Assembly (NCBI GenBank): GCA_040757335.1
Contig: JBFLXB010000002.1
Coordinates: 36,381 to 100,380, forward strand
Length of the DNA stretch: 64,000 nt
DNA from: Nitrospirota bacterium
GTDB lineage: Bacteria > Nitrospirota > Nitrospiria > 2-01-FULL-66-17
Reading direction: 5' to 3'
This document shows, one piece after another, positions 9,755 through 56,774 of this stretch. The notes under the pieces are model-generated. The model made no database searches. It was not told the origin of the DNA and saw nothing but the letters and a program-made list of their open reading frames with translations. Every line of letters starts with the position of its first letter. The first letter of the stretch is position 1. The position numbers and the translations under genes are program-made.

Positions 9755-11593
9755 TCAGCGCTGCAACGCCTGCAGCAGCGATTCGTCGAGTCGGTGTTGG
9801 TGGAAATATTCGCGCTCCAATTCTTCGAGATCGTATCGATCCACGCCGCTCGACGCGAAAAACGCGTCTCGTCGCCCGTCCGATCCCTCGGGCGAAGCCA
9901 CGAGCGTGGGCAGGACTTCGTAAAAGTAGACCGCCTCCCGGTGCAGATCGCGGATCACTTTGCGGAACGTGGCTTCGGGGATAGGCGCCGTGATGACGCC
10001 CTTGTTCAGCAACTCCTGCGAGAGCTGATCCCGCAAATGCGTCATCGCTTCGGCCTGGGGTTCCTTGATGAATTGTTTGAGGAACCGCTTGAGGTGTTTG
10101 TGAACCTGGCGGTAGCCTTGGGCGTCCAGATTGACCTGACGAACCTGATTGGCCACCTCCTGCAGGGTCAGCCGCCCCTCGTCGATTTCCTTTAACCCCT
10201 GGAACACGATGAAGATTTTCCGGCGACCGAAATCCGTGAGGTACCGATCCTTGACGATCGAGTCGATGAACAGTTCCTTGAAAAGCTTCGGCGCCAGATC
10301 GTCGAAGATCTTTTTGTTGGCGTGAATGGTCTTCAGCACGGAATCAGTGGTCTGATCATCGTCCATAAAGACCATTTGATTCAAGTAGGTGTAGGTCGCG
10401 TCGAACCGGTCGAAGCACGTGACGATGAGGCTGAAGCGCTCCAGGATCCCGGAATCCCCGGTTTGCGAGGCGTATTCGTCGCAGCTCTTGCCCACGTCCA
10501 GCAACAGGGCGTCGAACGCGAAGTCGCGCCGCTCGATGGCCTGTCGCTTGGCGCGCAGCAGCGTGGCCAGTTCCTCCTTGAGCACCGAGCCGTCGCTGGA
10601 CTGGCGTTGCAGGAACATGCTGTCGAGGAGGCTCCGCGCGGCCGCGAGGTGCTCCGGTTCTTCGAAGCGCTCGGCCGCTTTGTCCTTGAGGAAGATACCG
10701 TCCAAAGTGTGAAACACTTCCAGCGGAATCGCGTGGCGCACCGAGAGCGTGCGCAAACGGTTGAGCTTGGCGAGAATCGCCTGGGTGGAGCTGGGATCGA
10801 TGAGCATCTCGGCCAACAGGTCTTTATATTCATCGATCAACCGCTTGTTGTCCGGGTGTTGATAGACCACGTCGATCTGCATGCGGGTCTGCTGGTAGAG
10901 ATCGATGGTGTGTTGCTGCGCGATCTCTTCCAGCCGCCGTGAGACCGGTTCGTCGTTCTGCGTGTGGGCGGCGTAGACGTGTTGGAACGAGTGGTAATAG
11001 GTCGTGTGCCCGCGGTGCGTCAGCTTGAAGAGGTACAGAATCGCCCGAGGCTCCTTGAGCGCCTCGTAGAGTTGGTGGACCATCTGCACGTCGTCCTGGA
11101 TCGACACCAGCGCCGAGTGTTTGACGACGCGGCCGATCCGCCGCAACAGGAATTCCTGCTGTTTGTGAAGCGGCTGCTGCTCGGGGAGATGGACGAAGAA
11201 ATAATAATTGCACACCGCGTTGCCGCTGCGGAACACTTCCTCGAAGGTCTCGCGGCCCTCGGTTTGGTCCGTGAATCGGATCGACTGGCCGGTAGGATCG
11301 AGAATGGCGCCGTTGAGCACCAGGCGATTGACGACTTCTTTCTTGACCAGGTCCTTGAGCGGGAGGTTGACCCCGAACATGTACCGGCAGAAGCTTCCGC
11401 CGTTGCCTTTGTACCGGATGCCGTCGTGTCCGATGAGAAATTCGTTGCCTGCCGCGAAGAATCGGATCGTCCCGGGTTTCCCGTCGGGCGACGGCTCGTA
11501 GAAAAACTGGTGCCCGACCGAGCGGCCGGCGATCGTGGCGAAATACTCAATCTCCGGGTTGACCTGTCCGTGAAGGCGGATGTCTTCGATCAT
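9755..11593 (-). CDS. Hypothetical protein, 612 aa, no family recognised
   Basis: Long uninterrupted ORF with protein-like composition (mixed charged/hydrophobic, no low-complexity bias), unlike the antisense Arg/Gly-rich ORFs that overlap it. Cytoplasmic-looking (no TM or signal peptide). Confidence 0.5.
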   Translation of the reverse strand: MIEDIRLHGQVNPEIEYFATIAGRSVGHQFFYEPSPDGKPGTIRFFAAGNEFLIGHDGIRYKGNGGSFCRYMFGVNLPLKDLVKKEVVNRLVLNGAILDPTGQSIRFTDQTEGRETFEEVFRSGNAVCNYYFFVHLPEQQPLHKQQEFLLRRIGRVVKHSALVSIQDDVQMVHQLYEALKEPRAILYLFKLTHRGHTTYYHSFQHVYAAHTQNDEPVSRRLEEIAQQHTIDLYQQTRMQIDVVYQHPDNKRLIDEYKDLLAEMLIDPSSTQAILAKLNRLRTLSVRHAIPLEVFHTLDGIFLKDKAAERFEEPEHLAAARSLLDSMFLQRQSSDGSVLKEELATLLRAKRQAIERRDFAFDALLLDVGKSCDEYASQTGDSGILERFSLIVTCFDRFDATYTYLNQMVFMDDDQTTDSVLKTIHANKKIFDDLAPKLFKELFIDSIVKDRYLTDFGRRKIFIVFQGLKEIDEGRLTLQEVANQVRQVNLDAQGYRQVHKHLKRFLKQFIKEPQAEAMTHLRDQLSQELLNKGVITAPIPEATFRKVIRDLHREAVYFYEVLPTLVASPEGSDGRRDAFFASSGVDRYDLEELEREYFHQHRLDESLLQALQR

Positions 11594-14439: not shown

Positions 14440-15036
14440 GTGAAGCGTCGGTTCCTCTGGGCCAACTGTGTGGTCGCGCTCTGGCTGGGTGCCTGCGCGT
14501 CCAGTCCTGCGCCGGCGCCCGCGCCGAAGGAATCGCGGGTACCGCTTCCGAGCTCGGAGTATCGGATCGGTCCGGAGGACGTGCTGGAAATCGTGGTGTG
14601 GAAGAACGCTGATTTGTCCAAGACCGTGTCGGTGCGCCCCGACGGGATGATCACGCTTCCGTTGATCGGGGAGCTGCGCGCGGGGGGCCTGACCGCGGAT
14701 GAGGTGCGGACCGAGATCAAGAGCCGCCTGGAACGGTACAAAGAGACCCCAGAGGTATCCGTGACCGTCGCGGATATCCGAAGCTACAACCTGTTCATTC
14801 TTGGCGAGGTCCGGACCCCGGGCCGTTATCAAGTCAAGACCTCCACCACCCTGCTACAAGCGCTGGCATTAGCCGGCGGGTTTACGGAGTTCGCCGATAC
14901 CGACGGCATCGTGGTCGTGCGGCGGGATACACGGGAAGCGGTCTCGAAAGAGCAGCGGATCAGGGTCCGATATCGGGATTTGGTCCAGCGGGGGGACGTG
15001 GCGTTGTCTCCCGGCGATACCGTCATCGTTCCGTAG
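14440..15036 (+). CDS. Polysaccharide export outer-membrane lipoprotein, short Wza/EpsA-like (SLBB domain)
   Basis: GTG start preceded by GGGGAAGG. Lipobox WLGAC. YRIGPEDVLEIVVW..ITLPLIGEL..GLT..E typical of Poly_export/SLBB proteins. About 198 aa, like EpsA of PEP-CTERM loci. Confidence 0.8.
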   Translation: MKRRFLWANCVVALWLGACASSPAPAPAPKESRVPLPSSEYRIGPEDVLEIVVWKNADLSKTVSVRPDGMITLPLIGELRAGGLTADEVRTEIKSRLERYKETPEVSVTVADIRSYNLFILGEVRTPGRYQVKTSTTLLQALALAGGFTEFADTDGIVVVRRDTREAVSKEQRIRVRYRDLVQRGDVALSPGDTVIVP

Positions 15037-15045
15037 CAGGGCGAT

Positions 15046-16602
15046 ATGGCACAATCCAGCACACGCGACGGAGTCGATCACTACCTGGAGGTTTTCAGCC
15101 GGAGACGCTGGTGGGTCATCATTCCGGCGATCGTCATCGCGACGCTCACGGTCCCCATCGTGATGTGGCTGCCGGCCACCTACCGATCCACCACGCTGAT
15201 CACGGTCGAAGCGCAAAAAGTGCCGGAAGAGTTTGTGCGTTCGACCGTCACGATCCCGATCGAAGAGCGCCTCCAAGCCATCAGCCAACAGATTCTCAGC
15301 CGAACTCGCCTCGAACGGGTCATCGAGAAATACGGCTTGTACCGAGAGGACAGACAACGCGGGTGGGGATGGCTCACCACGTGGTTCGGACGAAGCGAAG
15401 ATCGAGAACAAGCGGCCCGTCCGGGCAGTCCCCAGATGCTCGACCTTGTGGTGCTCATGAAGAGCAACATTGAAATTGAGGTTCCACGGGCGCGTGATCG
15501 CGGTAACACGATTTCGATCTCGTTCAGCGGCGAATCGCCCCAGACCGTCCAGGCCGTGACGAACGAACTCGCATCGCTGTTTATTGAAGAGAACCTGAAG
15601 GCCCGTGAGGCCCAGGCGGAAGGCACCACCGAATTCCTCGAAACCGAGCTTCAGCAGACGAAGGTGCAGCTGGAGACCCACGAGCAGCACTTGCGCGCGT
15701 TCAAAGAGCGCTCGATGGGCGAGTTGCCGGATCAGCTGGACGCCAACCTGCGGACCCTCGACCGACTCCAGTTGGAACGACAGGTCCTGCAGCAAAGCTT
15801 GAAGAGCGCGGAGGACCGCTACGCGGATCTAAGCCGGCAGGTTCTTGCGGCATCGTCAGCCTCAGAGGAGGCTACGCCGTCCGATCTGGCGCGACGGCTT
15901 CAGACGTTACGCACTCGTCTTGCGGACCTGCGGACCGAATACCGGGACGAGTATCCGGACATCATTCTGCTCAAGAAGGAAATTGCCTCGGTGGAAACCG
16001 AACTCGCCTCGCAGGGGTCACGGGAGGCACAAGAAGTGACTTCGGCTTCGGCTGCCGGTCAACTTCCGGCCGGGAATCCGCTCGCGATGCAGCTGGCCGA
16101 CCAGCAGCGGGAAATCAACGCACTCAGACTTCGTCAGCAGACGGTCTTGGAACAGATCCGCGAGTATGAGCGGCGGGTCGAGAATACCCCGGTCCGCGAA
16201 CAACAGTTGGCCGCGATCCTCCGCGACTACGAGAACGTTCAGCGCAGCTACCAGAGTCTGCTCGCGAAACGTCAGGATGCCAAGATCTCCGAGAGTCTGG
16301 AGCGAAGGCAAAAGGCCGAATTTTTCCGCATCCTCGACCCGGCGAATCTGCCGTCTCGCCCCGATAAACCCAACCGTCCGCTCTTGATGCTGTTGGGGAT
16401 TTTCGGGGGACTTGCGGCCGGCTTGGGTCTCGCCTATTTCCGCGAGCAGCTTGATCCCTCGATTCAAAGCGAGGAGGACCTGGTCGCGGCGACCACCGGT
16501 CTTCCGCTCCTCGCGGTCATTCCGGTCATCCCCGCTTCGGTCAAGAAGAAATCGCGCTCTGAATCGTCGCCGACGGTCCACGTGGGCTCCGGGAAACCAT
16601 GA
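15046..16602 (+). CDS. Polysaccharide chain-length determinant protein (Wzz/GumC family; PEP-CTERM-locus EpsF-like)
   Basis: N-terminal TM (WWVIIPAIVIATLTV), long periplasmic coiled-coil region, second TM near the C-terminus (LLMLLGIFGGLAAGLGLAYF). Classic PCP-2a N-terminal architecture without the kinase. Confidence 0.8.
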   Translation: MAQSSTRDGVDHYLEVFSRRRWWVIIPAIVIATLTVPIVMWLPATYRSTTLITVEAQKVPEEFVRSTVTIPIEERLQAISQQILSRTRLERVIEKYGLYREDRQRGWGWLTTWFGRSEDREQAARPGSPQMLDLVVLMKSNIEIEVPRARDRGNTISISFSGESPQTVQAVTNELASLFIEENLKAREAQAEGTTEFLETELQQTKVQLETHEQHLRAFKERSMGELPDQLDANLRTLDRLQLERQVLQQSLKSAEDRYADLSRQVLAASSASEEATPSDLARRLQTLRTRLADLRTEYRDEYPDIILLKKEIASVETELASQGSREAQEVTSASAAGQLPAGNPLAMQLADQQREINALRLRQQTVLEQIREYERRVENTPVREQQLAAILRDYENVQRSYQSLLAKRQDAKISESLERRQKAEFFRILDPANLPSRPDKPNRPLLMLLGIFGGLAAGLGLAYFREQLDPSIQSEEDLVAATTGLPLLAVIPVIPASVKKKSRSESSPTVHVGSGKP

Positions 16603-17408
16603 GCGACTCGCGATCTCCCGAACCGTACGCCTCGTGGTTATCAAGGATCCGGCAACGCGTGGAGTCTCCAAGCGGGGTCAGCAACGCTCAGACCAACGAC
16701 GATCTGTCAGCGTCGTCAACCGGTCAGCGACCCGCAAGGGGAGACAAGGTTCAGCTCCCGTTTATCGCAGCGATCGATGAGCCAGACTCGGTGGTCGCCG
16801 AGCAGTACCGGCTGTTCGCTGCCAGACTGGAGGGGTTGTGGAAACAGCCCGGCTTCAAGATGGTGGGCATCACGAGCACACTGCCTAGCGAGGGTAAGAG
16901 CTTGACCAGCATCAACGTGGCCTGCGTGTTGGCCAAGGACTTCGGACGCCGCGTGCTGGTAATCGATGGCGATTTTCGCAAGCCCAGCCTTTGGCAGTAC
17001 GTTGGCAACAAACCGTCAAAGGGGCTATCGGACGCAATTGCCAACCGGCGGGACGCGGATTCGATGGTTCGACGGCTCCGATACGAGCACCTCGCGGTTC
17101 TCCAAACCGGTCAGGTGCCGATCAACTCCACGCGATTGTGGAAGTCTGACGCGATCAAGCACTTGCTGGCGCATTTCGGTGGACAATATGACTATGTGAT
17201 CGTCGATACGCCTCCGGTCTTGACGGTCGTCGATACGACCTTGATCGCGGATCTAATGGATGGGGTGGTGGTGGTGGTGCGGTCCGGCGTGACGCCGACG
17301 GCCATGCTGCAGAAGGCCCTGGCGTCGCTGCCTCGGGCCAAGTTGGTTGGGACGGTGTTGAACGCGGCGAAGGGGTATTCGCCCTCATACTACTATCACG
17401 TGCGATGA
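16599..17408 (+). CDS. BY-kinase-type ATPase (CpsD/CapB-like; PEP-CTERM-locus EpsG-like) with C-terminal tyrosine cluster
   Basis: ATGA overlap with the upstream gene. Walker A TSTLPSEGKS, Walker A' VIDGDFRKP, Walker B YVIVDTPP. C-terminal Y-cluster YSPSYYYHVR. Confidence 0.75.
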   Translation: MSDSRSPEPYASWLSRIRQRVESPSGVSNAQTNDDLSASSTGQRPARGDKVQLPFIAAIDEPDSVVAEQYRLFAARLEGLWKQPGFKMVGITSTLPSEGKSLTSINVACVLAKDFGRRVLVIDGDFRKPSLWQYVGNKPSKGLSDAIANRRDADSMVRRLRYEHLAVLQTGQVPINSTRLWKSDAIKHLLAHFGGQYDYVIVDTPPVLTVVDTTLIADLMDGVVVVVRSGVTPTAMLQKALASLPRAKLVGTVLNAAKGYSPSYYYHVR

Positions 17409-18646
17409 GAACCGAAGACTCGGCGGGTGTAACTGGTTTGGCATCAACAGGGATGGCGAAAATGATTCCACCAAAGAAGAAGCTGAAACGCGGACGTGGA
17501 CCGGCGGGTCCACACGATCCGGTGTCGTTTCTCGTTGACCCGGAATTCGACATTTATATCGAAGACTACTTCATCGAAAGGCTGTGTTCCGAGCGGCAAA
17601 GGACGGCGCGGTCCCAAAAGCCGCTGTTGATGATGCTGTTGGACATCGAGCGGCTGCCCGAGCGCGAGCGGAGGGACACGATCAAGAAAGTCGTGACGGT
17701 CTTATCCGCAACGGTGAGAGAGACCGATCTCAAGGGTTGGTATAAGAACGACTCCGTGATCGGGGTGCTCTTTACCGAGGTCGCCGACGTGGATAGGGAG
17801 TCTTTGCGGCAAAAGATTTACGCGAAGCTTTGTGACAAACTGAAATCGGCTCAGGCCAGTCGAATCGACATCTCCTTTCATGCGTTCCCCGAGGACCCAC
17901 CGGAGGGCTCCAATGATCGAGAACAAGGTCCTCACAAACAGACCACTTCGGATGATCCCGTGTTCTATCCGGATCTCACCAGGCCGAAATTGTCCAAGAG
18001 CGTCTATCTCGGGAGCAAACGGGCCATCGACGTGCTGGGAAGTCTCGTCTGTCTGACCGTTTTTTCCGCGGTCTTTTTGGCGATTGCGATCGCCATCAAA
18101 GCGTCCTCCCGCGGTCCAATCATCTTCAGGCAGGAGAGGATCGGGTTGTACGGACGAAAGTTCGTTTTCTTGAAGTTCCGATCGATGTACATGAACAATG
18201 ATCCCGCCATCCACAAGGAGTATGTGCACAACCTGATCCTTGGGCAGAAGACCAACGGCAATGGAGGAAACGGATCGAACGGGAACGGCGTCTACAAGAT
18301 TACGAACGATCATCGGGTCACTCCGCTTGGCCGGTTCCTCAGGAAAACGAGTCTGGATGAGCTTCCTCAGTTCTTTAACGTTCTGATGGGACATATGTCA
18401 CTGGTCGGGCCACGGCCCCCAATTCCCTACGAGCTGGAGAAATACGAAGTGTGGCATCGGAGGCGTGTGCTGGAGGTCAAGCCGGGGATATCTGGCCTCT
18501 GGCAGGTGAGGGGCAGGAGCAGAACCACCTTCGACGAGATGGTGAGGATGGACATCAAGTATCTCAGGGAGCAATCGCTCTGGTTGGATCTGAAGATCCT
18601 CCTGCAGACTCCCTGGGCGATGTTCACGGCAAGGGGCGCGTACTAG
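17405..18646 (+). CDS. Priming sugar transferase (bacterial sugar transferase / PglC-WbaP C-terminal domain) with N-terminal degenerate GGDEF-like domain
   Basis: ATGA overlap with the BY-kinase gene. The C-terminal catalytic domain has hallmark motifs (RFLRKTSLDELPQFFNVLMGHMSLVGPRP, KPGISGLWQV). A single TM precedes it (VLGSLVCLTVFSAVFLAIAIAI). The N-terminal ~190 aa aligns to the GGDEF core (PLLMMLLDIERL.., VRETDLKGWYKNDSVIGVLF), with GG(D/E)EF replaced by KNDSV and an RxxD (RETD) at the inhibitory-site position. Confidence 0.8.
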   Translation: MRTEDSAGVTGLASTGMAKMIPPKKKLKRGRGPAGPHDPVSFLVDPEFDIYIEDYFIERLCSERQRTARSQKPLLMMLLDIERLPERERRDTIKKVVTVLSATVRETDLKGWYKNDSVIGVLFTEVADVDRESLRQKIYAKLCDKLKSAQASRIDISFHAFPEDPPEGSNDREQGPHKQTTSDDPVFYPDLTRPKLSKSVYLGSKRAIDVLGSLVCLTVFSAVFLAIAIAIKASSRGPIIFRQERIGLYGRKFVFLKFRSMYMNNDPAIHKEYVHNLILGQKTNGNGGNGSNGNGVYKITNDHRVTPLGRFLRKTSLDELPQFFNVLMGHMSLVGPRPPIPYELEKYEVWHRRRVLEVKPGISGLWQVRGRSRTTFDEMVRMDIKYLREQSLWLDLKILLQTPWAMFTARGAY

Positions 18647-18686: not shown

Positions 18687-19691
18687 ATGATTGGCGTTGG
18701 CGTCGTCGGATACGGGTACTGGGGCCCGAACCTGGTACGGAACTTTCACGCGCTTGAGAACGCGAAGGTGGTCAAAGTTTGCGACCGGAACCCGGCGGCC
18801 TTGAAGCGTCTCGCCAAGACCTATCCGGGTATTGAAGGTGTGACGAGTGCCGATGAGATCATGAAGTCGACGGAGATCGATGCGGTGGTAATCGCTACGC
18901 CGGTCTCCGCGCATTTCGAGTTAGCGAAAGAGGCGCTCCAACACGGCAAGCACATCTTTGTGGAGAAGCCCTTCACGGTAACCTCGGCGCAGTCCGAGAG
19001 GCTCATCGAATTGGCGGAGAAAAAGAACCTCAAGATCATGGTCGACCACACCTTCCTGTTTACCGGCTCGGTCAGGAAGATGAAACAGCTGATCGATGAC
19101 GGCGTGCTGGGTCAGCTCTACTATTACGACTCCACCAGAGTGAACCTCGGCTTGTTTCAGCACGACGTGAACGTCATCTGGGATTTGGCGCCGCACGACC
19201 TGTCGATCATGGATTTTCTCCTCAAGGACAAACCAGTGGCGGTGACGGCCAACGGGAGAGCCCATTTCGGAAACGGATTGCAGGATATCGCGTATATCAC
19301 GGTGTACTTCGCGAACGATATGCTGGCCCACTTCAACGTCAACTGGCTCTCGCCGGTGAAGGTGAGAACGACGCTGATCGGCGGCGAGAAGAAGATGCTT
19401 GCCTGGAACGACTTGGAGGCTGATGAGAAGATTCGAATCTATGACAAGGGGATTGAGGTCAAGAGCGGGGAGGGGATCTACAATCTGTTGGTGAGTTATC
19501 GCTCGGGGGACATGTGGGTCCCGAGGCTTGAACAGACCGAGGCACTGAAGACCGAGACCGAGTATTTTGTGCACTGTGTGTCGAACAACGAGACCCCGTT
19601 CAATGACGGGCGTGCCGGGCTCAGGGTGGTGAGAATGCTCGAGGCGTGTACGGAGTCGCTGGCAAAGGACGGCGGGATGGTTACGCTATGA
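18687..19691 (+). CDS. Gfo/Idh/MocA-family NAD-dependent sugar dehydrogenase (WbpB/WlbA-like UDP-GlcNAcA 3-dehydrogenase)
   Basis: N-terminal Rossmann VGVVGYGYWGPN, EKP motif (HIFVEKPF), about 334 aa. Followed directly by the acetyltransferase and aminotransferase partners. Confidence 0.8.
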   Translation: MIGVGVVGYGYWGPNLVRNFHALENAKVVKVCDRNPAALKRLAKTYPGIEGVTSADEIMKSTEIDAVVIATPVSAHFELAKEALQHGKHIFVEKPFTVTSAQSERLIELAEKKNLKIMVDHTFLFTGSVRKMKQLIDDGVLGQLYYYDSTRVNLGLFQHDVNVIWDLAPHDLSIMDFLLKDKPVAVTANGRAHFGNGLQDIAYITVYFANDMLAHFNVNWLSPVKVRTTLIGGEKKMLAWNDLEADEKIRIYDKGIEVKSGEGIYNLLVSYRSGDMWVPRLEQTEALKTETEYFVHCVSNNETPFNDGRAGLRVVRMLEACTESLAKDGGMVTL

Positions 19692-20173
19692 GCGAGGTGG
19701 CTGTCGCGCCGGATGTGCGCTTGGGCAAGGATGTTAAGCTGTCGAAGTTTATCAATCTCTATGGATGTGAGATCGGCGACTGCACGAAAATCGGACCGTT
19801 CGTTGAAGTGCAGAAGAACGCGACGATCGGGAAGAACTGCAAGATTTCCAGTCACACCTTCATTTGTGAAGGGGTGACGATCGAGGACAACGTGTTTGTG
19901 GGGCACAATGTGTCGTTCGTCAACGACACCTACCCACGAGCCACCACCGCGGACGGCACGTTGCAGACGGAAAAGGACTGGAAGGTGGAGAAAACGCTGG
20001 TCAAGAAGGGGGCGTCCATCGGGTCCGGGGCGACCATTCTTGCGAACGTCACCATCGGTGAAAACGCCATCGTGGGGGCCGGCAGCGTCGTGACCAAAGA
20101 CGTCCGCCCGAACTCCGTGGTTGCGGGCAATCCCGCAAAGTTTCTGAGGAACCTGACCAGTGACAATCGATAA
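19688..20173 (+). CDS. Hexapeptide-repeat (LbH) N-acetyltransferase (WbpD/WlbB-like)
   Basis: ATGA overlap with the upstream gene. Repeated [LIV]-G-x-x-x-x hexapeptides (IGKNCKI, IGSGATI, IGENAIV, VGAGSVV). About 161 aa. Confidence 0.8.
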   Translation: MSEVAVAPDVRLGKDVKLSKFINLYGCEIGDCTKIGPFVEVQKNATIGKNCKISSHTFICEGVTIEDNVFVGHNVSFVNDTYPRATTADGTLQTEKDWKVEKTLVKKGASIGSGATILANVTIGENAIVGAGSVVTKDVRPNSVVAGNPAKFLRNLTSDNR

Positions 20174-21350
20174 GACTCATGTACCGTTTGTCGACCTGAT
20201 CACGCCCCATGTGGAACTGGAGCGGGAGTTGACGGCGGTGTTTCAACAAGCTGTCAGGTCAGCTGGATTCATCGGCGGACCGATGGTCAGCGAGTTTGAA
20301 AAACGCTTCGCGGAATTCTCCGGGACGTCGCAGTGTGTCGGCGTGAGCAGCGGGACGGACGCCTTGCGATTCGCGTTGATGGCCGCGGGGGTCCAAAAAG
20401 GCGACCGGGTGATCACGGTCCCGAACACCTTCATCGCCACGACCGAGGCGATCACCCAAGCGGGCGCCGTACCGGACTTCGTTGATATCGATGAACGCAC
20501 CTACAACATGGATCCCGAAAAACTTCGCGAGTACATCGAGATCCGGTGCGCCGTCGACAAGAAAACCGGCAGGATCGTCAACCGCGCCACGGGACAGCCG
20601 GTATCGGCCGTCGTCCCCGTGCACCTCTACGGCCAGCCGGCCGACATGGACCCCATTTTGGAACTGGCCGAACGGTATGGATTGATCGTGGTTGAAGACG
20701 CGTGCCAGGCGCACGGGGCCGAGTACTTGTCCAAGGCGGCTGGAGGGTGGAGGAAGGCCGGCTCGATCGGAAAAGCCGCGGCCTTCAGCTTCTATCCGGG
20801 GAAGAATCTGGGGGCGTGCGGAGAAGCGGGGGCGGTGACGACGAACGATGAGGGGATCGCGAGTAAGATTCGGATGCTCCGGGACCACGGACAGGTCAAG
20901 AAATACGTCCACGACGTGGAAGGATACAACGGACGGCTCGACGCCATACAGGCGGGTATCCTATCAGTGAAACTCAAACGCTTGCCTGAATGGAATGAAG
21001 AGCGCCGCCGCCTGGCGGCTCGTTACAACGAGCTGCTTGGAGACGTTGATGATCTGGTGAGGCCGGTTGAACCAGAATGGGCCAAGTCAGTCTATCACCT
21101 TTATGTGGTGCGCGTCCCGGATCGAGATGACGTGCAGAAACACCTCTCGGAGAACGACATCGCCACGGGTTTACATTACCCCGTACCCCTCCATCTTCAG
21201 AAGGCCTATGCCGACCTTGGGTACAAGAACGGCGACTTTCCGGTGACTGAGAAGGTCTCCAAGGAGATTCTGTCACTTCCCATGTACCCGGGGTTGGCGG
21301 AAAGTCAGCAGCAGCGTGTGGCCGAATGTCTCCAAAAACAGAGATCATAA
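20160..21350 (+). CDS. DegT/DnrJ/EryC1/StrS-family PLP aminotransferase (WbpE/WlbC-like)
   Basis: GTG start overlapping the upstream stop. Motifs SSGTDAL, FSFYPGKNLGACGEAGAV (PLP lysine region), VPLHLQ. Confidence 0.85.
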   Translation: MTIDKTHVPFVDLITPHVELERELTAVFQQAVRSAGFIGGPMVSEFEKRFAEFSGTSQCVGVSSGTDALRFALMAAGVQKGDRVITVPNTFIATTEAITQAGAVPDFVDIDERTYNMDPEKLREYIEIRCAVDKKTGRIVNRATGQPVSAVVPVHLYGQPADMDPILELAERYGLIVVEDACQAHGAEYLSKAAGGWRKAGSIGKAAAFSFYPGKNLGACGEAGAVTTNDEGIASKIRMLRDHGQVKKYVHDVEGYNGRLDAIQAGILSVKLKRLPEWNEERRRLAARYNELLGDVDDLVRPVEPEWAKSVYHLYVVRVPDRDDVQKHLSENDIATGLHYPVPLHLQKAYADLGYKNGDFPVTEKVSKEILSLPMYPGLAESQQQRVAECLQKQRS

Positions 21351-30964: not shown

Positions 30965-32218
30965 GTGAACTCTATTGCCATATCGTTTCTACTCATCAAC
31001 GCGGCGGCGTTGCTGCTATTGCCCCGTCGTTTAGCTGCACTGCCTCTTTTGGCGGGAGCGTGCTATATGACCCGTGGCCAGGGGATTGAGGTCGGACCGT
31101 TCCACTTTATGGTGCTCAGAATGTTGATTGCCGTTGGGCTCGTACGGATCATGTCCCGAGGCGAGCGGATGACGGGTGGAATGAACGGCCTGGATTGGCT
31201 GATGCTGGCATGGGCCCTCTGGGCCTCGACCAGTAGCGTCTTTCACAGAGATCCTTGGGGGGCGTTGGTATATCGACTAGGGGTCGTTTACGATGCGTAC
31301 GGAATCTACTTTCTGATTCGGGTTTTTTGTCAGTCCCTCGATGACGTTATAGGGCTGTCCCGCCTAACAGCGATCCTGTTGGTACCGGTTGCTGCTGAAA
31401 TGGTTTATGAAAAGCTCATGTCCCACAACTATTTTGCGGTGTTCGGCGGCGTGAGCGCCGATCCGTACATCCGAGAAGGCCGTGTCCGAGCAAATGGACC
31501 ATTTGCCCACGCCATATTGGCTGGGACTGTGGGTGCTGTTTCTGGGCCCCTTATGGTGGGGCTGTGGAGAGATCACCGGTTTTGGGCTATCGCCGGGATT
31601 GTAGCCTCTCTAACAATCGTGATTGCCAGTACGTCGAGCGGCCCGATCATGAGCAGTGCTGCGGCTGTGGGAGCTCTGGTTATGTGGCGGTTTCGCCGAC
31701 GGGTTCATCTCGCCCGATGGCTTGGGTTAGCAGCGTATGTCGCCCTTGATTTGTACATGAAAGACCCAGCATATTACATTATTGCGCGAATCGATTTAGT
31801 TGGCGGTAGCACCGGTTGGCACCGAGCTAGACTAATACAATCGTCGATCGAGCATATCTCTGAATGGTGGTTTGCTGGAACTGACTATACCAGACACTGG
31901 ATGGCGTCAGGCGTCTCATGGAGTGCAGAACACACTGACATTACGAACCATTACCTTCAAATGGGAGTTATAGGTGGGTTGCCCCTGATGTTGCTCTTCA
32001 TCGGCACCCTTGCCAAGGGATTTTCCTTCGTGGGTCAGGCGGTTCGGCATACGGATGACTTCTCACCCCACTCACGGTTCGTGGTCTGGACCCTTGGAGC
32101 GGCGTTATTCACACATGCCGTAACATTCATTTCAGTCTCGTACTTCGACCAGTCGTCACTATTCATTTATCTCAATCTTGCTCTCATCGGATCTGTAAAG
32201 TCTGGAATACGATCGTGA
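30965..32218 (+). CDS. O-antigen ligase / polymerase-like membrane protein (Wzy_C family; exosortase-locus O-ligase-like)
   Basis: About 10 predicted TM segments. The conserved periplasmic-loop signature ITNHYLQMGVIGGLPLMLLFIG matches the HNxyL...G..G motif of O-antigen ligase family proteins. Confidence 0.7.
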   Translation: MNSIAISFLLINAAALLLLPRRLAALPLLAGACYMTRGQGIEVGPFHFMVLRMLIAVGLVRIMSRGERMTGGMNGLDWLMLAWALWASTSSVFHRDPWGALVYRLGVVYDAYGIYFLIRVFCQSLDDVIGLSRLTAILLVPVAAEMVYEKLMSHNYFAVFGGVSADPYIREGRVRANGPFAHAILAGTVGAVSGPLMVGLWRDHRFWAIAGIVASLTIVIASTSSGPIMSSAAAVGALVMWRFRRRVHLARWLGLAAYVALDLYMKDPAYYIIARIDLVGGSTGWHRARLIQSSIEHISEWWFAGTDYTRHWMASGVSWSAEHTDITNHYLQMGVIGGLPLMLLFIGTLAKGFSFVGQAVRHTDDFSPHSRFVVWTLGAALFTHAVTFISVSYFDQSSLFIYLNLALIGSVKSGIRS

Positions 32219-33660
32219 AAGGCCTAGTAGCGATTGCGAACTTCGGAAGCAAGAATGCTAAGTATCTAGAGAGACTGCTTGATGAATATCGTTCGATGAA
32301 GCGGTATGAGGTCTCTATCGCTGTCCTGTCGAATGTCCCAAAGGAGCTTGGTTCAGACGTCGAAGTCATCGTGGGTCTTCCGGCGAAGGATCCATGGTCG
32401 CTCCCGTTTGGCCATAAGACCTTATTTGCTAAGCGGATAGAGGAATATGATTTTTTTATCTATACAGAGGACGACACTCTCATAACTGAACGTAATATTG
32501 ACGCCTTTATTCAGGTTACCCGAGTTCTGCCAGACCGATACATTTCGGGATTCATTCGCTACGAGATATCCCCAGAGGGGAAGAAGTTCTTCACGACGTT
32601 TCATGATCATTTCCATTGGGACCCGAATTCGATAGTAAAGATCGGAGAGTATATCTTCGCTCACTATACCAACGACCATTCGGCATGCTTTATCTTGACT
32701 CGAGGACAGCTAAGAAAGGCGATCGAATCTGGTGGGTTCCTTTTGCCGCCGAGGAAAGGGCGCTATGACATGTTGGTAACAGCGGCGACGGATCCCTACA
32801 CTCAGTGCGGAATGAAGAAGCTAGTCTGCATTTCTCATTTGAATGACTTTTGTCTTCCGCATCTCCCTAATGCCTACATTGGCAGGATAGGACTTGAGGC
32901 CAAGTGGGCGGATAGGGAGATCGAGGCCCTTAAAGTGCTCTCCGGCACGCCCACAATCCGAGGCCCTTTGTTTGATACGAGCACGCTCCTCGATGATGCT
33001 AGGTGGGATAAAAAGTACCACGAGCCCCGCCGAGACGATATTCTGTCCCTTATCCCAAAAGGCGCGAACCGGGTCTTGTCAGTCGGATGCGGATGCGGAT
33101 CAACTGAGGCCGACTTGGTGATGCAAGGCGTGGAAGTGATTGGAATTCCGTTGGATTGCGTAATTGCGGTAAGCGCTGCCGCAAAAGGGATCAAAACAGT
33201 TAATCCGAGTTTCGAAGCTGCCAGGGAGGCCCTGCGGGGTATGCACTATGATTGCATCGTATTCCAGGATGTACTTCAGCATGTAGCTGATCCAATTGCG
33301 ACGCTGAGGGACTTCCGGCCGTTTCTGTCGGAAAACGGTTCCATGATCATCAGTGTGCCAAATTTCAACTACCCCTCGCTACTACGCGAAAGAGAGCTTA
33401 TGAGGCTTCGCGCTCGAGGCGTTAGCGACGGTCAGTGCTTCAATCGTTACAGGCTACATTTTACTACGCGAAGTATGCTCTCGTTATGGTTGGATAGAAG
33501 CGGGCTTGTGGTGACCAAATCGTGCTCCGTGGTCGAACCTCGCTACGAGGTGTTAGGTTGGGTCTGCCTGGGTCTACTGAATAACTGGTTCTCGCGAAAT
33601 ATCGTTGTGCGCGCCGAACCGCTGCCACATGAGTCTGGGGTGGCGTGGAAGAACAAATGA
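32215..33660 (+). CDS. Two-domain protein: N-terminal uncharacterised (GT-A-like?) domain + C-terminal class I SAM-dependent methyltransferase
   Basis: GTGA overlap with the upstream gene. C-terminal MTase motif I VLSVGCGCGSTEADLV and post-I acidic residue (DCIVFQDVLQHV). N-terminal ~260 aa contains FIYTEDDTLI (DxD-like) but no recognised family. Confidence 0.6.
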   Translation: MKGLVAIANFGSKNAKYLERLLDEYRSMKRYEVSIAVLSNVPKELGSDVEVIVGLPAKDPWSLPFGHKTLFAKRIEEYDFFIYTEDDTLITERNIDAFIQVTRVLPDRYISGFIRYEISPEGKKFFTTFHDHFHWDPNSIVKIGEYIFAHYTNDHSACFILTRGQLRKAIESGGFLLPPRKGRYDMLVTAATDPYTQCGMKKLVCISHLNDFCLPHLPNAYIGRIGLEAKWADREIEALKVLSGTPTIRGPLFDTSTLLDDARWDKKYHEPRRDDILSLIPKGANRVLSVGCGCGSTEADLVMQGVEVIGIPLDCVIAVSAAAKGIKTVNPSFEAAREALRGMHYDCIVFQDVLQHVADPIATLRDFRPFLSENGSMIISVPNFNYPSLLRERELMRLRARGVSDGQCFNRYRLHFTTRSMLSLWLDRSGLVVTKSCSVVEPRYEVLGWVCLGLLNNWFSRNIVVRAEPLPHESGVAWKNK

Positions 33661-36917: not shown

Positions 36918-37775
36918 TTGATGACCACTATGCGGACGATGCTTGGAAAGCTCAAGAGGCGTGGTGCTTCCGCTCTAGAGGGTCTCATCGTTGGGACGCC
37001 GATGCCTCTGGCGGTTCAAACGTGGGCGATCAAGTGGTTGTTGCCGATGGACCCTTGGCCGAAATCGCTAGCCTATCAGCAGTGCCTTGCGGATCGCGTC
37101 ATGAGGAACTACGGCGCCATCACCCAGAGCGGTCCGTTTAAGGGTATGGTCTGTATCCGAGACGCGAAAGAAGGATGTCTGGTTCCGAAGCTGCTCGGGT
37201 GTTACGAAGAAGAACTCGCGTCGACGATTGAGGCCTTCCTCCAAAGGGGATTTGACCGCATTATTGATGTAGGTTGTGCGTCGGGTTATTGGCTAACTGG
37301 GTTGGCCCTTCGAATGCCGAAAGCCAAGGCGTTTGGCTTCGATGGCGACAAGGAGGCGCTGGCGCGCTGCTCAACGCTGGCGGCGTTAAACAACGTTCAG
37401 TCTAGGATCACGTTGCTTGGCCTCTGTACTCCAGCGGAACTTGAGAGGCTCATAACAGATCGGACTTTCGTGTTCATGGATTGTGACGGACCGGAATACG
37501 AATTGCTGGATCCTGGCGCGGCACCGTCTCTTCGCAAGGCCGATATCATCGTCGAGTGCCATGATTATCTCAACCCGAAGATTTCATCCACCATCCAAGA
37601 GAGGTTCAGGGCGTCCCACTTGATTGACAGGATAGAGAGCCGAACTAGGGAGCCGAGTGTCGAGCGGTATCCCGGGCTTAAGGTCCTTCCACGCCAACAC
37701 TGGGCAGGCGCGCTCGACGAACGGCGGCCAGCTGTTCAGGAATGGCTGATAATGCGCTCCAAACATCTGCCATAG
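36918..37775 (+). CDS. SAM-dependent methyltransferase (class I; FkbM-like)
   Basis: Motif I IIDVGCASGYWLTGLAL. Acidic post-I (FGFDGD). Confidence 0.6.
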   Translation: MMTTMRTMLGKLKRRGASALEGLIVGTPMPLAVQTWAIKWLLPMDPWPKSLAYQQCLADRVMRNYGAITQSGPFKGMVCIRDAKEGCLVPKLLGCYEEELASTIEAFLQRGFDRIIDVGCASGYWLTGLALRMPKAKAFGFDGDKEALARCSTLAALNNVQSRITLLGLCTPAELERLITDRTFVFMDCDGPEYELLDPGAAPSLRKADIIVECHDYLNPKISSTIQERFRASHLIDRIESRTREPSVERYPGLKVLPRQHWAGALDERRPAVQEWLIMRSKHLP

Positions 37776-40994: not shown

Positions 40995-43109
40995 ATGGAC
41001 AGCAGCACAAGCCCAGAAGGTGTAGAACGTGAGCAAACTGATTCGATGATTGATCGATTCCTTGACGAGCGGCCACCGGGTGGTGTGATCGGGACGGAAG
41101 TGAAGGCGCGGGTTGCGCGTAAGGGTGTAGACGAGGAGCGGGTGATCAGCATAGACAATGGAGCCCTCCGGATCCAGCCCTTGATTCGACCAGGGTGGGG
41201 GCGCTCTGGAATCGCCTACGGGCCATACGCGAGAAGGAACGGGTTGGCCTTTGGCGCCTTTCTCACCAATGGTCATAACATATCTCAATCCGAGCCGCTT
41301 CCCGACGGATTCAGGGCCAGACTCGTGCGCTGGGTTCGAGGGAGTGAGACGGACAAGCCGCTCACACGAATTATACGATGGCTACGAGGCTCGCAGAAGA
41401 AGTTCACGTGGCGGCGATTGTCTCATTGGTTTAGACACGGATCACGATTTCTTAAGGTGGACCCTCTCCGTGAGAATCTTGCCGTAGGGTGGTTTCCTAG
41501 TGATAGACCCGGCGATCCCTTAAGCGAGGGCAATTCGCTTATCGTCCATGCTCTCACGTCTGAGGGCGGTGAGCTCTGGGCGCGATCGGGGTTAGGCGTC
41601 GTCCGGACAGTTCGCGGACTTCAGAATGTTCCAATGTACTACTTCGTCGTATTGCGCGAAAAAGGGGCCGCATACTATGGTGCTTCGGTTCCGGGTGTGC
41701 CAGGCCTTACGGCCTATCCGAGGATGCGATTGCTGGCGGTCGACGCGGTGCACGCCGACAAAGAGGTGTACGCAGGGGTCCACCAGAGTGTCCTCGGTGA
41801 GATCGGCTTCCGGGCTGACACGAGAGTCTATAGTACGCAAGTGGAAATGCTATCCGAGTTCGACAAATGGTACGGTTCAGCGCACGGCGCTGATTCGTTG
41901 ACCGGCGAGGGGAAGCTTCACCTGTCTAATGCTGAAATCGGAGGGAACTGGACGGTCTACGAGGGAGAGTTTGCTAGGACTAAGCGAGGGTTGATCGCAA
42001 CAGGTGCCACGAACGTGGCTATGCTGAAGTTGAACGCGCCTGTGGGGTTGGTTCATGTTGTGATCCACACATCCGATAAGGCTATGGGAGGAATGGCATT
42101 GATCTGGCGTGCCAAGGATGAGAAGAACTACTGGAGTTTCGAGGTGGGAAGCCGGCAGTGTAAGCTGTCCGTCAATGAAGACGGATCGTGGCACAGCTTT
42201 CCCGCCGCCAAGGGCCACTACCTTGCGCCCAATGCGGAGAATGTTGTGCAGGTCGCTGATGATGGCGAGAATATCCGATTGCACCTCAATGGAGACCTGG
42301 TATACGGGACGAGTTTATCGGACACTAGGTTGGGGGACGGAACTGGAGTCGGAGTTCGAGTCGCCGGTAGCACTGACAACGCCACGGTGCATTCGTTTGA
42401 GGCCCATCCACGTGATATGCCGATTCCTAAAGCGTTCGACCTTGGGAACGCATGGTTCGAACAAGGGAATCATGTCGTTGTGGAGTGCGCCTTCGAGGGT
42501 CCACCTGGTGACCTCGCTGGGCGTACTACAAAGGTGGGAGCCAGGATCTGGAAAAAGGATATTGGACGAGGCGTTATTCAGTCGATTGGTGGACGAGGTG
42601 CAAAGGTACTTGCCACCGTCGAGAAGCCGTGTCCTGATCGGACGGCGTACACAATCGAATGGCATAACCCCACGTTTGCTGACGTCGAGGTGAAGATCAC
42701 GCCCCCTGGGATGCGAAAAGGCATGAGGGAGAAAGGGCGAGGAGGCCTAATATTTTGGCAGGATGGATTAAATTACATCACTCTGAGTCTATTCCTGGGA
42801 GATTTTCCCGCCATGTCCATTGCGGCCTTCTTTTATAGGGACGGATACGAGGAGCTATATGATGCCGTATGGAGTAACATTGGCAACCGAGTCCACTGGG
42901 GAGTGCCTTATGACTTCAGAGTGGTATTCGACGGGAAGCGATTTCTGGCTTTTATAAATGGCGAGCCCGTACTCTACCGAGCGCTCTCCGACGTTTACGC
43001 GGACTGGAAGGAGCTTGTCATAAGCCGCGTTGGCATTGTCGCGAACTGGGAATGGGGAACCGACACGGGAAGTGTCTTCCACAACTTTGTCGTGAGAGAT
43101 CGAGCATGA
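40995..43109 (+). CDS. Hypothetical protein, 704 aa, no family recognised (cytoplasmic-looking), embedded in the glycan locus
   Basis: Uninterrupted ORF with balanced, protein-like composition. Its stop is coupled to the next gene start by an ATGA overlap. No TM, no signal peptide, no known catalytic motif seen. Confidence 0.5.
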   Translation: MDSSTSPEGVEREQTDSMIDRFLDERPPGGVIGTEVKARVARKGVDEERVISIDNGALRIQPLIRPGWGRSGIAYGPYARRNGLAFGAFLTNGHNISQSEPLPDGFRARLVRWVRGSETDKPLTRIIRWLRGSQKKFTWRRLSHWFRHGSRFLKVDPLRENLAVGWFPSDRPGDPLSEGNSLIVHALTSEGGELWARSGLGVVRTVRGLQNVPMYYFVVLREKGAAYYGASVPGVPGLTAYPRMRLLAVDAVHADKEVYAGVHQSVLGEIGFRADTRVYSTQVEMLSEFDKWYGSAHGADSLTGEGKLHLSNAEIGGNWTVYEGEFARTKRGLIATGATNVAMLKLNAPVGLVHVVIHTSDKAMGGMALIWRAKDEKNYWSFEVGSRQCKLSVNEDGSWHSFPAAKGHYLAPNAENVVQVADDGENIRLHLNGDLVYGTSLSDTRLGDGTGVGVRVAGSTDNATVHSFEAHPRDMPIPKAFDLGNAWFEQGNHVVVECAFEGPPGDLAGRTTKVGARIWKKDIGRGVIQSIGGRGAKVLATVEKPCPDRTAYTIEWHNPTFADVEVKITPPGMRKGMREKGRGGLIFWQDGLNYITLSLFLGDFPAMSIAAFFYRDGYEELYDAVWSNIGNRVHWGVPYDFRVVFDGKRFLAFINGEPVLYRALSDVYADWKELVISRVGIVANWEWGTDTGSVFHNFVVRDRA

Positions 43110-43912
43110 CATTTCAAGAAGGCCTTCTGAGGTTACTCTCCTTGAGGTTGCTTGGAGATGTCGGGCAGCGATTACTGCGCGGGCGACTCTGGACGATTGA
43201 GCGGGGGGAAGGGGCGGGTCTGAAGGTGGTCTATCCCCAAAACCATGACTACATTCTGGGGTCAAGCGAGCGCCCAGTTCAGAACGCCTTGGCGACGCAA
43301 CTCCATTCGGGCGATGTGTTCTATGATGTCGGTGCCAACGTGGGATTCTTCTCCATCGTTGCCGCGAGGCTGGTGGGATCAGAGGGGTACGTTTACTCGT
43401 TCGAGCCTGTGGAAGAGAACATTACATCCATCCGTGAGAACGCCAAAGTCAATAAGCTAGAAAATATGAAATCCTTTGAGGTGGCTGTGGGGCGAATGTC
43501 CGGAAACGAGGACCTGCTTTTGACGGAATGGAATGGTGGAGCCAGCCTCTCGACGTCGGTCGTCAAACCGGCTGTGCCGGCTTCCACAAGGAATGTGCGT
43601 GTTGTGGCGTTGGATGACTTCATACAGGCGCATAATTTGCGGGCTCCGACCCTGGTAAAGATCGACGTTGAAGGCTCTGAACTCGATGTGGTGCAAGGGA
43701 TGTCAAGAACGATTGCTACGTCAAGGCCGATCCTCTTGTACGAGATTGACGATGGAAACAAGAAAGCCTTCAGCAGCCGTTGGCAGGAACTTGATCAATT
43801 GGTCGCCGGATTCGGTTACCGGATCCTCCATCTCGAAGAGTCATATCCTACCCTCAAATGGAACGTCGGGCACTCCCTGGCGGTGCCGGTGGAGTCTCCG
43901 GATGCGGGCTGA
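43106..43912 (+). CDS. FkbM-family SAM-dependent methyltransferase
   Basis: FYDVGANVGFFSIVAA motif I typical of the FkbM family. ATGA overlap with the upstream gene. Confidence 0.7.
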   Translation: MTFQEGLLRLLSLRLLGDVGQRLLRGRLWTIERGEGAGLKVVYPQNHDYILGSSERPVQNALATQLHSGDVFYDVGANVGFFSIVAARLVGSEGYVYSFEPVEENITSIRENAKVNKLENMKSFEVAVGRMSGNEDLLLTEWNGGASLSTSVVKPAVPASTRNVRVVALDDFIQAHNLRAPTLVKIDVEGSELDVVQGMSRTIATSRPILLYEIDDGNKKAFSSRWQELDQLVAGFGYRILHLEESYPTLKWNVGHSLAVPVESPDAG

Positions 43913-43973
43913 ATTGTTTGGAACCCGAGGGCGCCTGCTATACGTGTTTCAGAGACTAGCTGCTGCGAGAAGT

Positions 43974-44159
43974 CCTAGCCCGGATTATTCATGAACGTTC
44001 GTAACGAACCCGCGCAGACGCCAGCGAAACGGGCGCTCAGAGCCGCGAGGAAGGGAGGCGTACTCAGTGCAGTACGTTGACCGACTGAGCGGCGAGACCG
44101 CCCGGTGCAGCCGCGTATCCGCGGGTACAGTAGAAGGTTCATGAATAGTCCGGGCTAGG
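43974..44159. repeat. About 186-bp intergenic element bounded by 23-bp inverted repeats (22/23 match), with internal palindromes
   Basis: Left arm 43974-43996 CCTAGCCCGGATTATTCATGAAC. Right arm 44137-44159 GTTCATGAATAGTCCGGGCTAGG. The interior contains GAACGTTC / GTTCGtaaCGAAC and GTATCCGCGGGTAC palindromes. Sits between two gene blocks. Confidence 0.6.
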
Positions 44160-44185
44160 TCCAGGTAACATTCGTCAGAGACAGA

Positions 44186-52311: not shown

Positions 52312-52343
52312 AGTCTACCGGCGGAAGCCGTTAGAGGTATCGC

Positions 52344-56744: not shown

Positions 56745-56774
56745 GTCCTGAAACTCCGCGATGTCCAGGATGTT

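Follow-up and report, generated by a model that had tools for sequence, protein, structure and literature searches.

The window analysed here (the whole 64-kb stretch of DNA) contains a forward-strand gene whose product joins a GGDEF-like domain, a putative sensor, to a monotopic phosphoglycosyl transferase (PGT). Its start ATG overlaps the stop of the upstream kinase gene (ATGA). The gene, its parts and its neighbors are listed by position, with residues of the fusion protein given as aa.

14440-15036, + strand: Wza-like exporter, upstream (Pfam)
15046-16602, + strand: Wzz/GNVR protein, upstream (Pfam)
16599-17408, + strand: P-loop kinase-like protein, upstream (Pfam)
17405-18646, + strand: fusion gene, 413 aa, GGDEF-like putative sensor domain plus monotopic PGT (ORF list, Pfam)
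17405-17536, + strand: N-terminal leader, aa 1-44, basic, Gly/Pro-rich and predicted disordered
17537-17890, + strand: shortened dead GGDEF-fold domain, aa ~45-162, in the order alpha1-beta1-alpha2-beta2-beta3-alpha3-beta4
17591-17614, + strand: basic motif in helix alpha1, E63-R-x-R66-x-x-R69-S70 (family consensus ERKRTERS)
17717-17728, + strand: RxxD motif, R105-E-T-D108, at the alpha2/beta2 junction in the inhibitory-site position (translation, HMM alignment)
17735-17740, + strand: G111-W112, a family-specific signature right behind RxxD
17744-17758, + strand: KNDSV hairpin turn, aa 114-118, replacing GG(D/E)EF (HMM alignment to GGEEF)
17813-17815, + strand: K137 in helix alpha3, candidate third I-site residue
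17891-17989, + strand: flexible linker, aa 163-195, with pLDDT below 50 at residues 171-181
17990-18106, + strand: predicted re-entrant membrane helix, aa 196-234 (helix-break-helix, AF2 model)
18017-18625, + strand: Bac_transf catalytic domain, aa 205-407 (Pfam PF02397, E 1.2e-64)
18687-21350, + strand: downstream sugar-modification triad of Gfo/Idh/MocA oxidoreductase, hexapeptide acetyltransferase and DegT aminotransferase (Pfam)

The AF2 model of the full-length fusion protein has a pLDDT of 81.6 and a pTM of 0.73. Leader residues 1-40 are modelled at pLDDT 46-61, and the leader is unconserved, its alignment columns consisting mostly of gaps among homologues. The C-terminal end of the linker carries a conserved (L/F)YPDL motif immediately ahead of the membrane helix, in which Y188 is nearly invariant.

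The C-terminal half had been predicted to be a PglC/WbaP-type catalytic domain, and this assignment was confirmed. The Bac_transf match spans profile positions 1-178 of 179; a TIGR03025 match (E 2.4e-83) involves the C-terminal part only and falls under that model's full-length cut-off. The Asp-Glu dyad (D318-E319 within LDELPQ) is intact, and both the dyad and the PRP motif at 336-338 (GPRP, 335-338) are invariant across 46 full-length homologues. The domain is an intact monotopic PGT of the PglC/WbaP superfamily with a PglC-like fold, as seen in Foldseek matches to the PglC structures 8e37 and 8g1n (E 6e-12, 33-36% identity) and to WbaP 8t53 (E 5e-10). The single transmembrane helix of the original prediction probably needs revision: in the AF2 model this segment, flanked at either end by basic residues, forms two helices (196-219 and 221-234) and is predicted to be re-entrant, not membrane-spanning. 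Ser221-Ala222 lie at the helix break, where the family, like PglC, has Ser-Pro (in at least 90% of members, with P222 nearly invariant); L001, one of the related loci, has Ser-Thr. The N-terminal module is predicted to be cytoplasmic, on the same membrane face as the transferase domain.

The N-terminal domain had been proposed to be GGDEF-derived, a claim to be checked by hmmscan against Pfam GGDEF (PF00990). For the single protein this search stayed below threshold, scoring 11.7-15.5 bits where the cut-off is 23.8; an NCBIfam scan likewise gave no GGDEF match above threshold, and such scans are insufficient alone. Among relatives the best E value is 2.2e-6, with E ≤ 1 in 40 of 80, and the module has a GGDEF/nucleotidyl-cyclase palm-like fold with the signature beta-hairpin. 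Profile, recurrence and structure together bear out the module's homology to GGDEF domains.

Recurrence became apparent from an exhaustive HMMER search, which gave the family where a word-indexed search had given only two relatives of the N-terminal domain. The family comprises at least 1,608 clusters at 50% identity, almost wholly unannotated, in Nitrospirota, Acidobacteriota, Desulfobacterota and Fibrobacterota, with many of the hosts in Desulfobacterota. The module is fused to two PGT architectures, small and large monotopic PGTs, and also occurs as tandem duplications and stand-alone genes. The possibility that the stand-alone copies are split genes was considered and rejected: L034 proved to be a fusion broken by a frameshift and L014 a paralogue in tandem, but L006 and L021 genuinely stand alone, with no PGT nearby. 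No exact copy of the fusion protein turned up in public assemblies. Related loci were found with a core-trimmed alignment and a scan pattern that included RxxD, so these loci do not provide independent evidence on RxxD conservation.

The catalytic features of a diguanylate cyclase are absent from the module. HMM alignment to c-di-GMP-bound GGDEF structures confirmed that KNDSV replaces GG(D/E)EF; positions 114-117 vary freely, and GGDEF is present in none of 348 module domains. The proposed match of LLMMLLDIERL to LxxxDxDxFK held in part, with D80 matching the first Asp (a residue that is Asp in just 184 of the 348 domains), but the GTP/Mg-binding DxFKxxND...GH..GD loop that should follow is deleted, leaving a gap of 6-7 residues in the same alignments. 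Also missing is everything from alpha4/beta5 onwards, which makes up the last ~35 residues of a canonical GGDEF domain. Judged by its sequence, the module is not an active diguanylate cyclase, because with both the catalytic loop and the GTP-binding loop lost it cannot make c-di-GMP.

The residues of the putative inhibitory site are conserved to a very different degree. The sequence runs RETD (aa 105-108), LKGWY, then KNDSV, and RETD aligns with the I-site RxxD of 6zxm, 5euh and 3ign, which confirms the predicted register of five residues upstream of the GGDEF position. In the homologue survey, over sequences at 39% identity, R105 and D108 were each found in 348 of 348, as were both residues of G111-W112, whereas the remainder of the domain drifts. 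An RxxD motif by itself is no guarantee of c-di-GMP binding. Position 137 is Lys or Arg in 337 of 345 sequences (238 Lys, 99 Arg), and K137 aligns with the first Arg of (E/D)R(I/V)R in 3ign and 6zxm, the third alignment being shifted by one helical turn. By transitive alignment, K137 is presumably the counterpart of PleD R390 and of PelD R402. The latter is required for the c-di-GMP site of PelD (PMC8461298). The basic motif in helix alpha1 is also strongly conserved (E63 337/339, R66 335/339, R69 336/339, S70 319/339) and is a candidate secondary ligand or interface site.

The best explanation of the gene product as a whole, held with modest confidence, is a priming PGT of a Wzx/Wzy-type exopolysaccharide cluster with an N-terminal regulatory module. 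The interpretation originally placed on it, a degenerate GGDEF domain wired as an I-site sensor onto a PGT, is supported, and we consider it somewhat probable that the dead module senses c-di-GMP through its retained I-site and so controls the fused transferase. According to this model, the I-site pocket would have been kept under absolute selection after catalysis was lost. c-di-GMP, most likely as an intercalated dimer, would bind R105 and D108 together with K137 on helix alpha3, and binding would either shift the seating of the module against the transferase domain or pair two molecules; high c-di-GMP would thereby switch on the first sugar-phosphate transfer to the lipid carrier. The ligand, the coupling mechanism and the direction of control are inferences, the last of them (activation) drawn from the analogy with PelD, PssE, BcsA and Alg44. 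Counting against the model are the missing C-terminal residues of the domain, the predominance of Lys over Arg at position 137 and the invariant Gly-Trp, which is foreign to known I-sites.

The downstream triad adjoins the fusion gene across phyla (Gfo/Idh/MocA at 68, acetyltransferase at 63 and DegT at 59 of 80 loci). No diguanylate cyclase, phosphodiesterase or PilZ genes were found across the whole 64-kb window, and just 2 of 80 loci have a canonical GGDEF gene near the fusion gene, so the model gains no support from linkage to enzymes of c-di-GMP metabolism.

Alternatively, the module might bind no small molecule and instead act as a protein-protein or oligomerization scaffold, with RxxD-GW and ERKRxERS forming the interface to, for example, a tyrosine-kinase/Wzc-like co-polymerase, sugar-modifying enzymes or a second PGT. 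Translational coupling to the kinase-like gene, the very tight synteny with the triad and the pTM of the full-length model, which hints at a defined two-domain arrangement, are all consistent with such a role. Precedents are CapM-type small PGTs, which are activated by a kinase (PMC10312794), and EpsZ, which a partner protein activates through dimerization (PMC12802240). However, just 21-23 of 80 loci have the kinase and Wzz genes next to the fusion gene (23 for the kinase), and kinase docking was rejected as a general function. Moreover, the invariant residues persist in stand-alone copies that lie far from any PGT, and an Arg/Asp pair that stays absolutely invariant over four phyla is what one expects of a ligand pocket more than of an interface. 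We regard a scaffold as unlikely.

A GGDEF-derived sensor of another ligand (3'3'-cGAMP, (p)ppGpp, a nucleotide or a nucleotide-sugar), with a retuned RxxD-GW pocket, appears distinctly unlikely. The invariant G111-W112 has no counterpart in described I-sites, which may mean that the pocket was put to a new use, and Lys is preferred to Arg at position 137. The abundance of Desulfobacterota among the hosts also fits, since cGAMP signalling through variant GGDEF enzymes occurs in that phylum. PDB entries 9g85 and 9g86 show PleD with (p)ppGpp alongside c-di-GMP, and the accessory domain of WbaP senses UMP (PMC10312794). Against this, the conserved residues are precisely the three that define a c-di-GMP I-site, the GTP/nucleotide substrate site is deleted, and nothing points to one specific alternative. 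That the module is an evolutionary relic which only helps the PGT to fold, stay stable or reach the membrane is very improbable: degenerate GGDEF domains without known function are common and no c-di-GMP enzymes are encoded nearby, but the pocket is invariant while the rest drifts, the module recurs on two PGT architectures, in tandem and alone, and most small PGTs, such as PglC, work without it.

Several known systems come close to a putative c-di-GMP-sensing module on a PGT. PelD serves the Pel polysaccharide system of Pseudomonas aeruginosa as a c-di-GMP receptor built on a degenerate GGDEF domain. PssE (Listeria), YdaK (Bacillus subtilis) and BcsE (enterobacterial cellulose) are I-site receptors of polysaccharide machines, but these are stand-alone accessories of processive synthases, with no fusion to a PGT and no known action on one. 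PleD, WspR, DgcR and GcbC are canonical product-inhibited diguanylate cyclases, whereas the module is without the GGDEF motif and GTP-binding loop, so that its I-site could serve only as a sensor. The regulated monotopic PGTs (EpsZ/EpsW of Myxococcus, the WbaP DUF, CapM and 'Bi-PGT' fusions) follow the logic proposed here, post-translational control of the first membrane-committed step by an accessory domain or partner (PMC12802240, PMC10312794), but the regulators described for them comprise a receiver protein, a DUF of the CoA_binding_3 type and a kinase. Regulatory PGT fusions have been reported with receiver domains (PMC12802240), and a GGDEF-derived module is unmentioned in these two papers. 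The monoPGT-fusion survey of O'Toole et al. 2021 might include one; the fusions named in articles that cite it are confined to sugar-modifying and receiver-domain ones (PMC12802240).

c-di-GMP is firmly established as a post-translational regulator of synthase-dependent polysaccharides such as cellulose, alginate, Pel and Listeria Pss, and Wzx/Wzy-dependent pathways are far commoner than synthase-dependent ones. To our knowledge, the first direct PGT regulator was reported only in 2025. Regulation after transcription is incompletely understood in Wzx/Wzy-dependent pathways (PMC12802240). The broader proposition, that c-di-GMP gates their first membrane-committed step through a widespread, unrecognized I-site module, fused or in trans, is in our estimation evenly balanced. 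If c-di-GMP is bound, the messenger would act on the enzyme by which scarce undecaprenyl phosphate is committed to the polymer, the logical control point; pathways of this class would thereby gain their first c-di-GMP checkpoint at the post-translational level, and the module would represent a new subfamily of shortened GGDEF receptors with the signature RxxD-x-x-GW. The soluble domain, of ~125 residues, is easily expressed, which makes the c-di-GMP hypothesis directly testable. Because the family is large and nearly unannotated, a family model of its own would give a new annotation to thousands of proteins now called 'sugar transferases' or 'hypothetical proteins'. The hosts belong to abundant uncultured phyla of soil, sediment and groundwater, in which biofilm regulation is essentially unstudied.

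The fusion gene (window 17405-18646, + strand) has an intact reading frame of 413 aa, and its ATG shares bases with the stop codon of the preceding gene (gcgATGAga), suggesting translational coupling between the two. As originally predicted, its C-terminal half is a PglC/WbaP-type catalytic domain of a phosphoglycosyl transferase (PGT): Pfam Bac_transf matches residues 205-407 (E = 1.2e-64), NCBIfam polyprenyl glycosylphosphotransferase models match only within the C-terminal part, and the same half of the full-length model (pLDDT 81.6, pTM 0.73) matches PglC (E = 6e-12, 33-36% identity) and WbaP (E = 5e-10). The protein has both the Asp-Glu dyad (318-319) and the PRP motif (336-338), neither of which varies among 46 full-length homologues. 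Within the catalytic domain, a Gly/Asn-rich low-complexity insert, NGNGGNGSNGNG (window 18254-18289, aa 284-295), is variable among homologues and predicted to be disordered, with pLDDT below 50 at residues 284-289.

The hydrophobic segment had been taken for a single TM, but the model divides it into two helices (196-219 and 221-234) with basic flanks on both sides, and on this geometry it is read as the re-entrant helix of monotopic PGTs rather than a spanning one. The N-terminal domain and the active site would then both lie on the cytoplasmic face, as a c-di-GMP sensor needs. At the break the window protein carries Ser221-Ala222 (window 18065-18070) and its closest relatives (protein P0002 and that of locus L001) carry Ser-Thr, whereas Ser-Pro, the helix breaker, occupies these positions in at least 90% of the family; the helix is still broken at residue 220 in the model of the Ser-Ala protein. 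Ser-Ala and Ser-Thr may be lineage-specific variants of this determinant of monotopic topology.

Homology of the N-terminal domain to the GGDEF core held by profile, recurrence and predicted structure, but not by a Pfam scan of the window protein alone, which scored 11.7-15.5 bits (E = 0.016-0.22) against a cut-off of 23.8. Searched against PDB sequences, a three-sequence N-domain profile matched GGDEF domains in seven of seven cases (best E = 0.0034) and an 80-sequence profile in 14 of 15 (E ~ 1e-3), all in a single common register. Half of 80 family members, each just ~28-41% identical to the window protein, individually matched PF00990 at E ≤ 1 (40/80, best 2.2e-6), and no other Pfam family recurred in more than two of them. 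An AlphaFold2 model of residues 38-203 based on 80 homologues (mean pLDDT 86, core >90) has the topology α-β-α-β-β-α-β; the domain falls short of canonical GGDEF length, ending after β4 at residue ~162 and continuing into a disordered linker. These lines of evidence settle its GGDEF identity despite the sub-threshold Pfam score, and we conclude that it is almost certainly a dead GGDEF fold.

The motifs quoted in the original prediction are present, nucleotides 17717-17758 translating as RETDLKGWYKNDSV. KNDSV aligns under GGEEF in HMM alignments to PDB sequences, a 6-7-residue gap replaces the cyclase loop bearing DxFKxxND..GH..GD, positions 114-117 vary freely, and GG(D/E)EF occurs in none of 348 distinct homologous domains; from these alignments the domain is judged catalytically dead and, as proposed, incapable of cyclising GTP. 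By contrast with positions 114-117, the RxxD that precedes them is retained throughout a pooled set (exhaustive HMMER search, second database search and 80 genomic loci; 348 distinct domains, mean pairwise identity 39%).

Conservation of module residues in the pooled set
R105, D108, G111, W112: kept in 348/348
Y113: 327/348
G120: 345/348
T124 and E125: 320 and 316 of 348
Position 137 (helix α3): K or R in 337/345
E63, R66 and R69 (helix α1, consensus ERKRTERS): 337, 335 and 336 of 339 (~99%)

R105 and D108 are thus invariant as expected, although the genomic loci were retrieved with an RxxD-containing pattern and carry no independent weight on this point. The 54 invariant columns of the seed profile A1 shrank to a few (R105, D108, G111, W112) in the pooled set, and selection bias does not account for the conservation. 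RxxD lies at the α2/β2 junction (helix 86-103, strand 109-114 in the full-length model), the inhibitory-site location of cyclases, and aligns with the RxxD of c-di-GMP-bound 6zxm, 5euh and 3ign. In two of three printed alignments K/R137 falls under the leading Arg of the (E/D)R(I/V)R motif, an Arg that we take to be PleD R390; K/R137 is thus a candidate counterpart of that residue. K/R137 is 32 positions downstream of RxxD; PelD requires R367, D370 and a third basic residue, R402, 35 positions downstream (PMC8461298).

The N-domain profile retrieved 1,608 clusters (50% identity) at E ≤ 1e-3 and 761 at E ≤ 1e-10. In one-genome-per-species data the module is encoded at 142 loci, all in MAGs, from Nitrospirota, Bryobacterales/Acidobacteriota, Syntrophales and other Desulfobacterota, and Fibrobacterota/Chitinivibrionales. 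The window protein shares 71% identity with its L001 counterpart, which is encoded in a Nitrospirota MAG with collinear synteny, and the window itself is probably Nitrospirota DNA. The second-best genomic match, L002 (JAADFO010000064.1), carries the sole archaeal label ('Nanobdellati archaeon' MAG); its synteny is fully bacterial-type (Wzz, kinase, PGT, WbpB/D/E-like genes), and it is probably a mis-binned bacterial contig. Fusion to Bac_transf accounts for 77 of 81 module occurrences. Three large WbaP-type PGTs (L015:5755-7827, L071:5800-7812, P0030; 658-690 aa) have the order module, CoA_binding_3 region, Bac_transf, which pairs the module with another accessory domain of putative nucleotide-sensing function, and four PGTs (P0003, P0004, P0008, L065:2591-3637) carry two tandem modules, each with RxxD-x-x-GW. 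A few stand-alone ~160-aa module genes occur in Nitrospirota (L021:2395-6423 region, L006:323-832, L014:5914-6417). The L014 copy lies directly upstream of a fused paralogue; the L021 gene has no PGT within 6 kb and is preceded by a sigma54-type response regulator, a single receiver domain and a sigma-70-family factor. P0121 (905 aa), which joins an amino-acid kinase and ACT to the GGDEF-like module and Bac_transf, may be either a genuine fusion or the product of read-through in gene calling. Family proteins are publicly named 'sugar transferase', 'glycosylphosphotransferase' or 'hypothetical protein'; a precomputed PF00990 match exists for one of 120, and a single entry bears the name 'GGDEF domain-containing protein'.

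The polysaccharide cluster that contains the fusion gene exceeds 45 kb.

Gene neighbourhood of the fusion gene and large ORFs without a Pfam match at the thresholds used
Upstream: Wza-like exporter, Wzz/GNVR protein, P-loop kinase-like protein (Pfam)
18687-21350, directly downstream: Gfo/Idh/MocA oxidoreductase, hexapeptide acetyltransferase, DegT aminotransferase (Pfam)
Further downstream: FemAB-like, GT4 and GT2 enzymes, deacetylase, AsnB-like protein, Wzy, Wzx; many methyltransferases, epimerases/dehydratases, pyruvyl transferase
9755-11593 (-): candidate ORF, 612 aa
29066-30931 (+): candidate ORF, 621 aa
40995-43109 (+): candidate ORF, 704 aa
59318-60820 (-): candidate ORF, 500 aa

The downstream triad, which resembles WbpB/WbpD/WbpE, follows the fusion gene across four phyla (oxidoreductase at 68, acetyltransferase at 63 and aminotransferase at 59 of 80 loci), and by this analogy suggests that the PGT subfamily primes with a conserved, probably 2,3-diacetamido-type UDP-sugar. 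Methyltransferases are unusually numerous in the cluster (window 51082-54817, 32215-33660, 36918-37775, 43052-45598), including three consecutive C-methyltransferase-type genes (Methyltransf_14); together with a pyruvyl transferase and an FrhB/FdhB-like Fe-S protein (55386-58028) they point to a heavily decorated polymer. Two of the four Pfam-less ORFs lie inside the cluster. Diguanylate cyclase, phosphodiesterase and PilZ genes are absent across the entire window. Two Fibrobacterota/Chitinivibrionales loci have a canonical-GGDEF ORF divergent from and just upstream of the fusion gene (L011:4743-5699 (-), L058:2303-3196 (-)), the only such neighbours in 900 kb of loci.

We propose that the module would act as a portable cytoplasmic sensor for PGTs. 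That it regulates the PGT is quite likely, and we infer its coupling to the transferase. The best-supported ligand is c-di-GMP, narrowly favoured, which would bind at R105/D108/K137 with a secondary site perhaps provided by the α1 arginines or a second protomer; in cyclases the I-site ligand cross-links domains. One rival is a pocket retuned for another nucleotide, given the unusual Lys preference and invariant Gly-Trp. A protein-interaction scaffold and a structural relic are the other readings of a protein in which fold, lost catalysis, pocket invariance, an intact PGT and recurrent fusion are all observed. The original prediction is supported in structure and conservation, with c-di-GMP binding as a proposal. 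If c-di-GMP is the ligand, high levels would activate the priming step, activation being expected by analogy with PelD, PssE, BcsA and Alg44.

Several polysaccharide machines are already known to be controlled by I-site receptors of the degenerate-GGDEF type (PelD (PMC8461298), PssE, YdaK, BcsE), but these receptors are separate subunits of synthase-dependent systems, whereas the module is fused to the PGT. Known PGT regulation involves a receiver protein (EpsW-EpsZ; PMC12802240), the WbaP DUF and a kinase acting on CapM (PMC10312794), and the regulatory fusions reported for small PGTs are receiver domains (PMC12802240). No link of GGDEF or c-di-GMP to a PGT was found in the literature searched, the coverage of which excludes the fusion survey of O'Toole et al. 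2021. Within that literature the coupling is undescribed; the components and logic are familiar, and the coupling falls in a class of pathways whose post-translational control is only partly understood.
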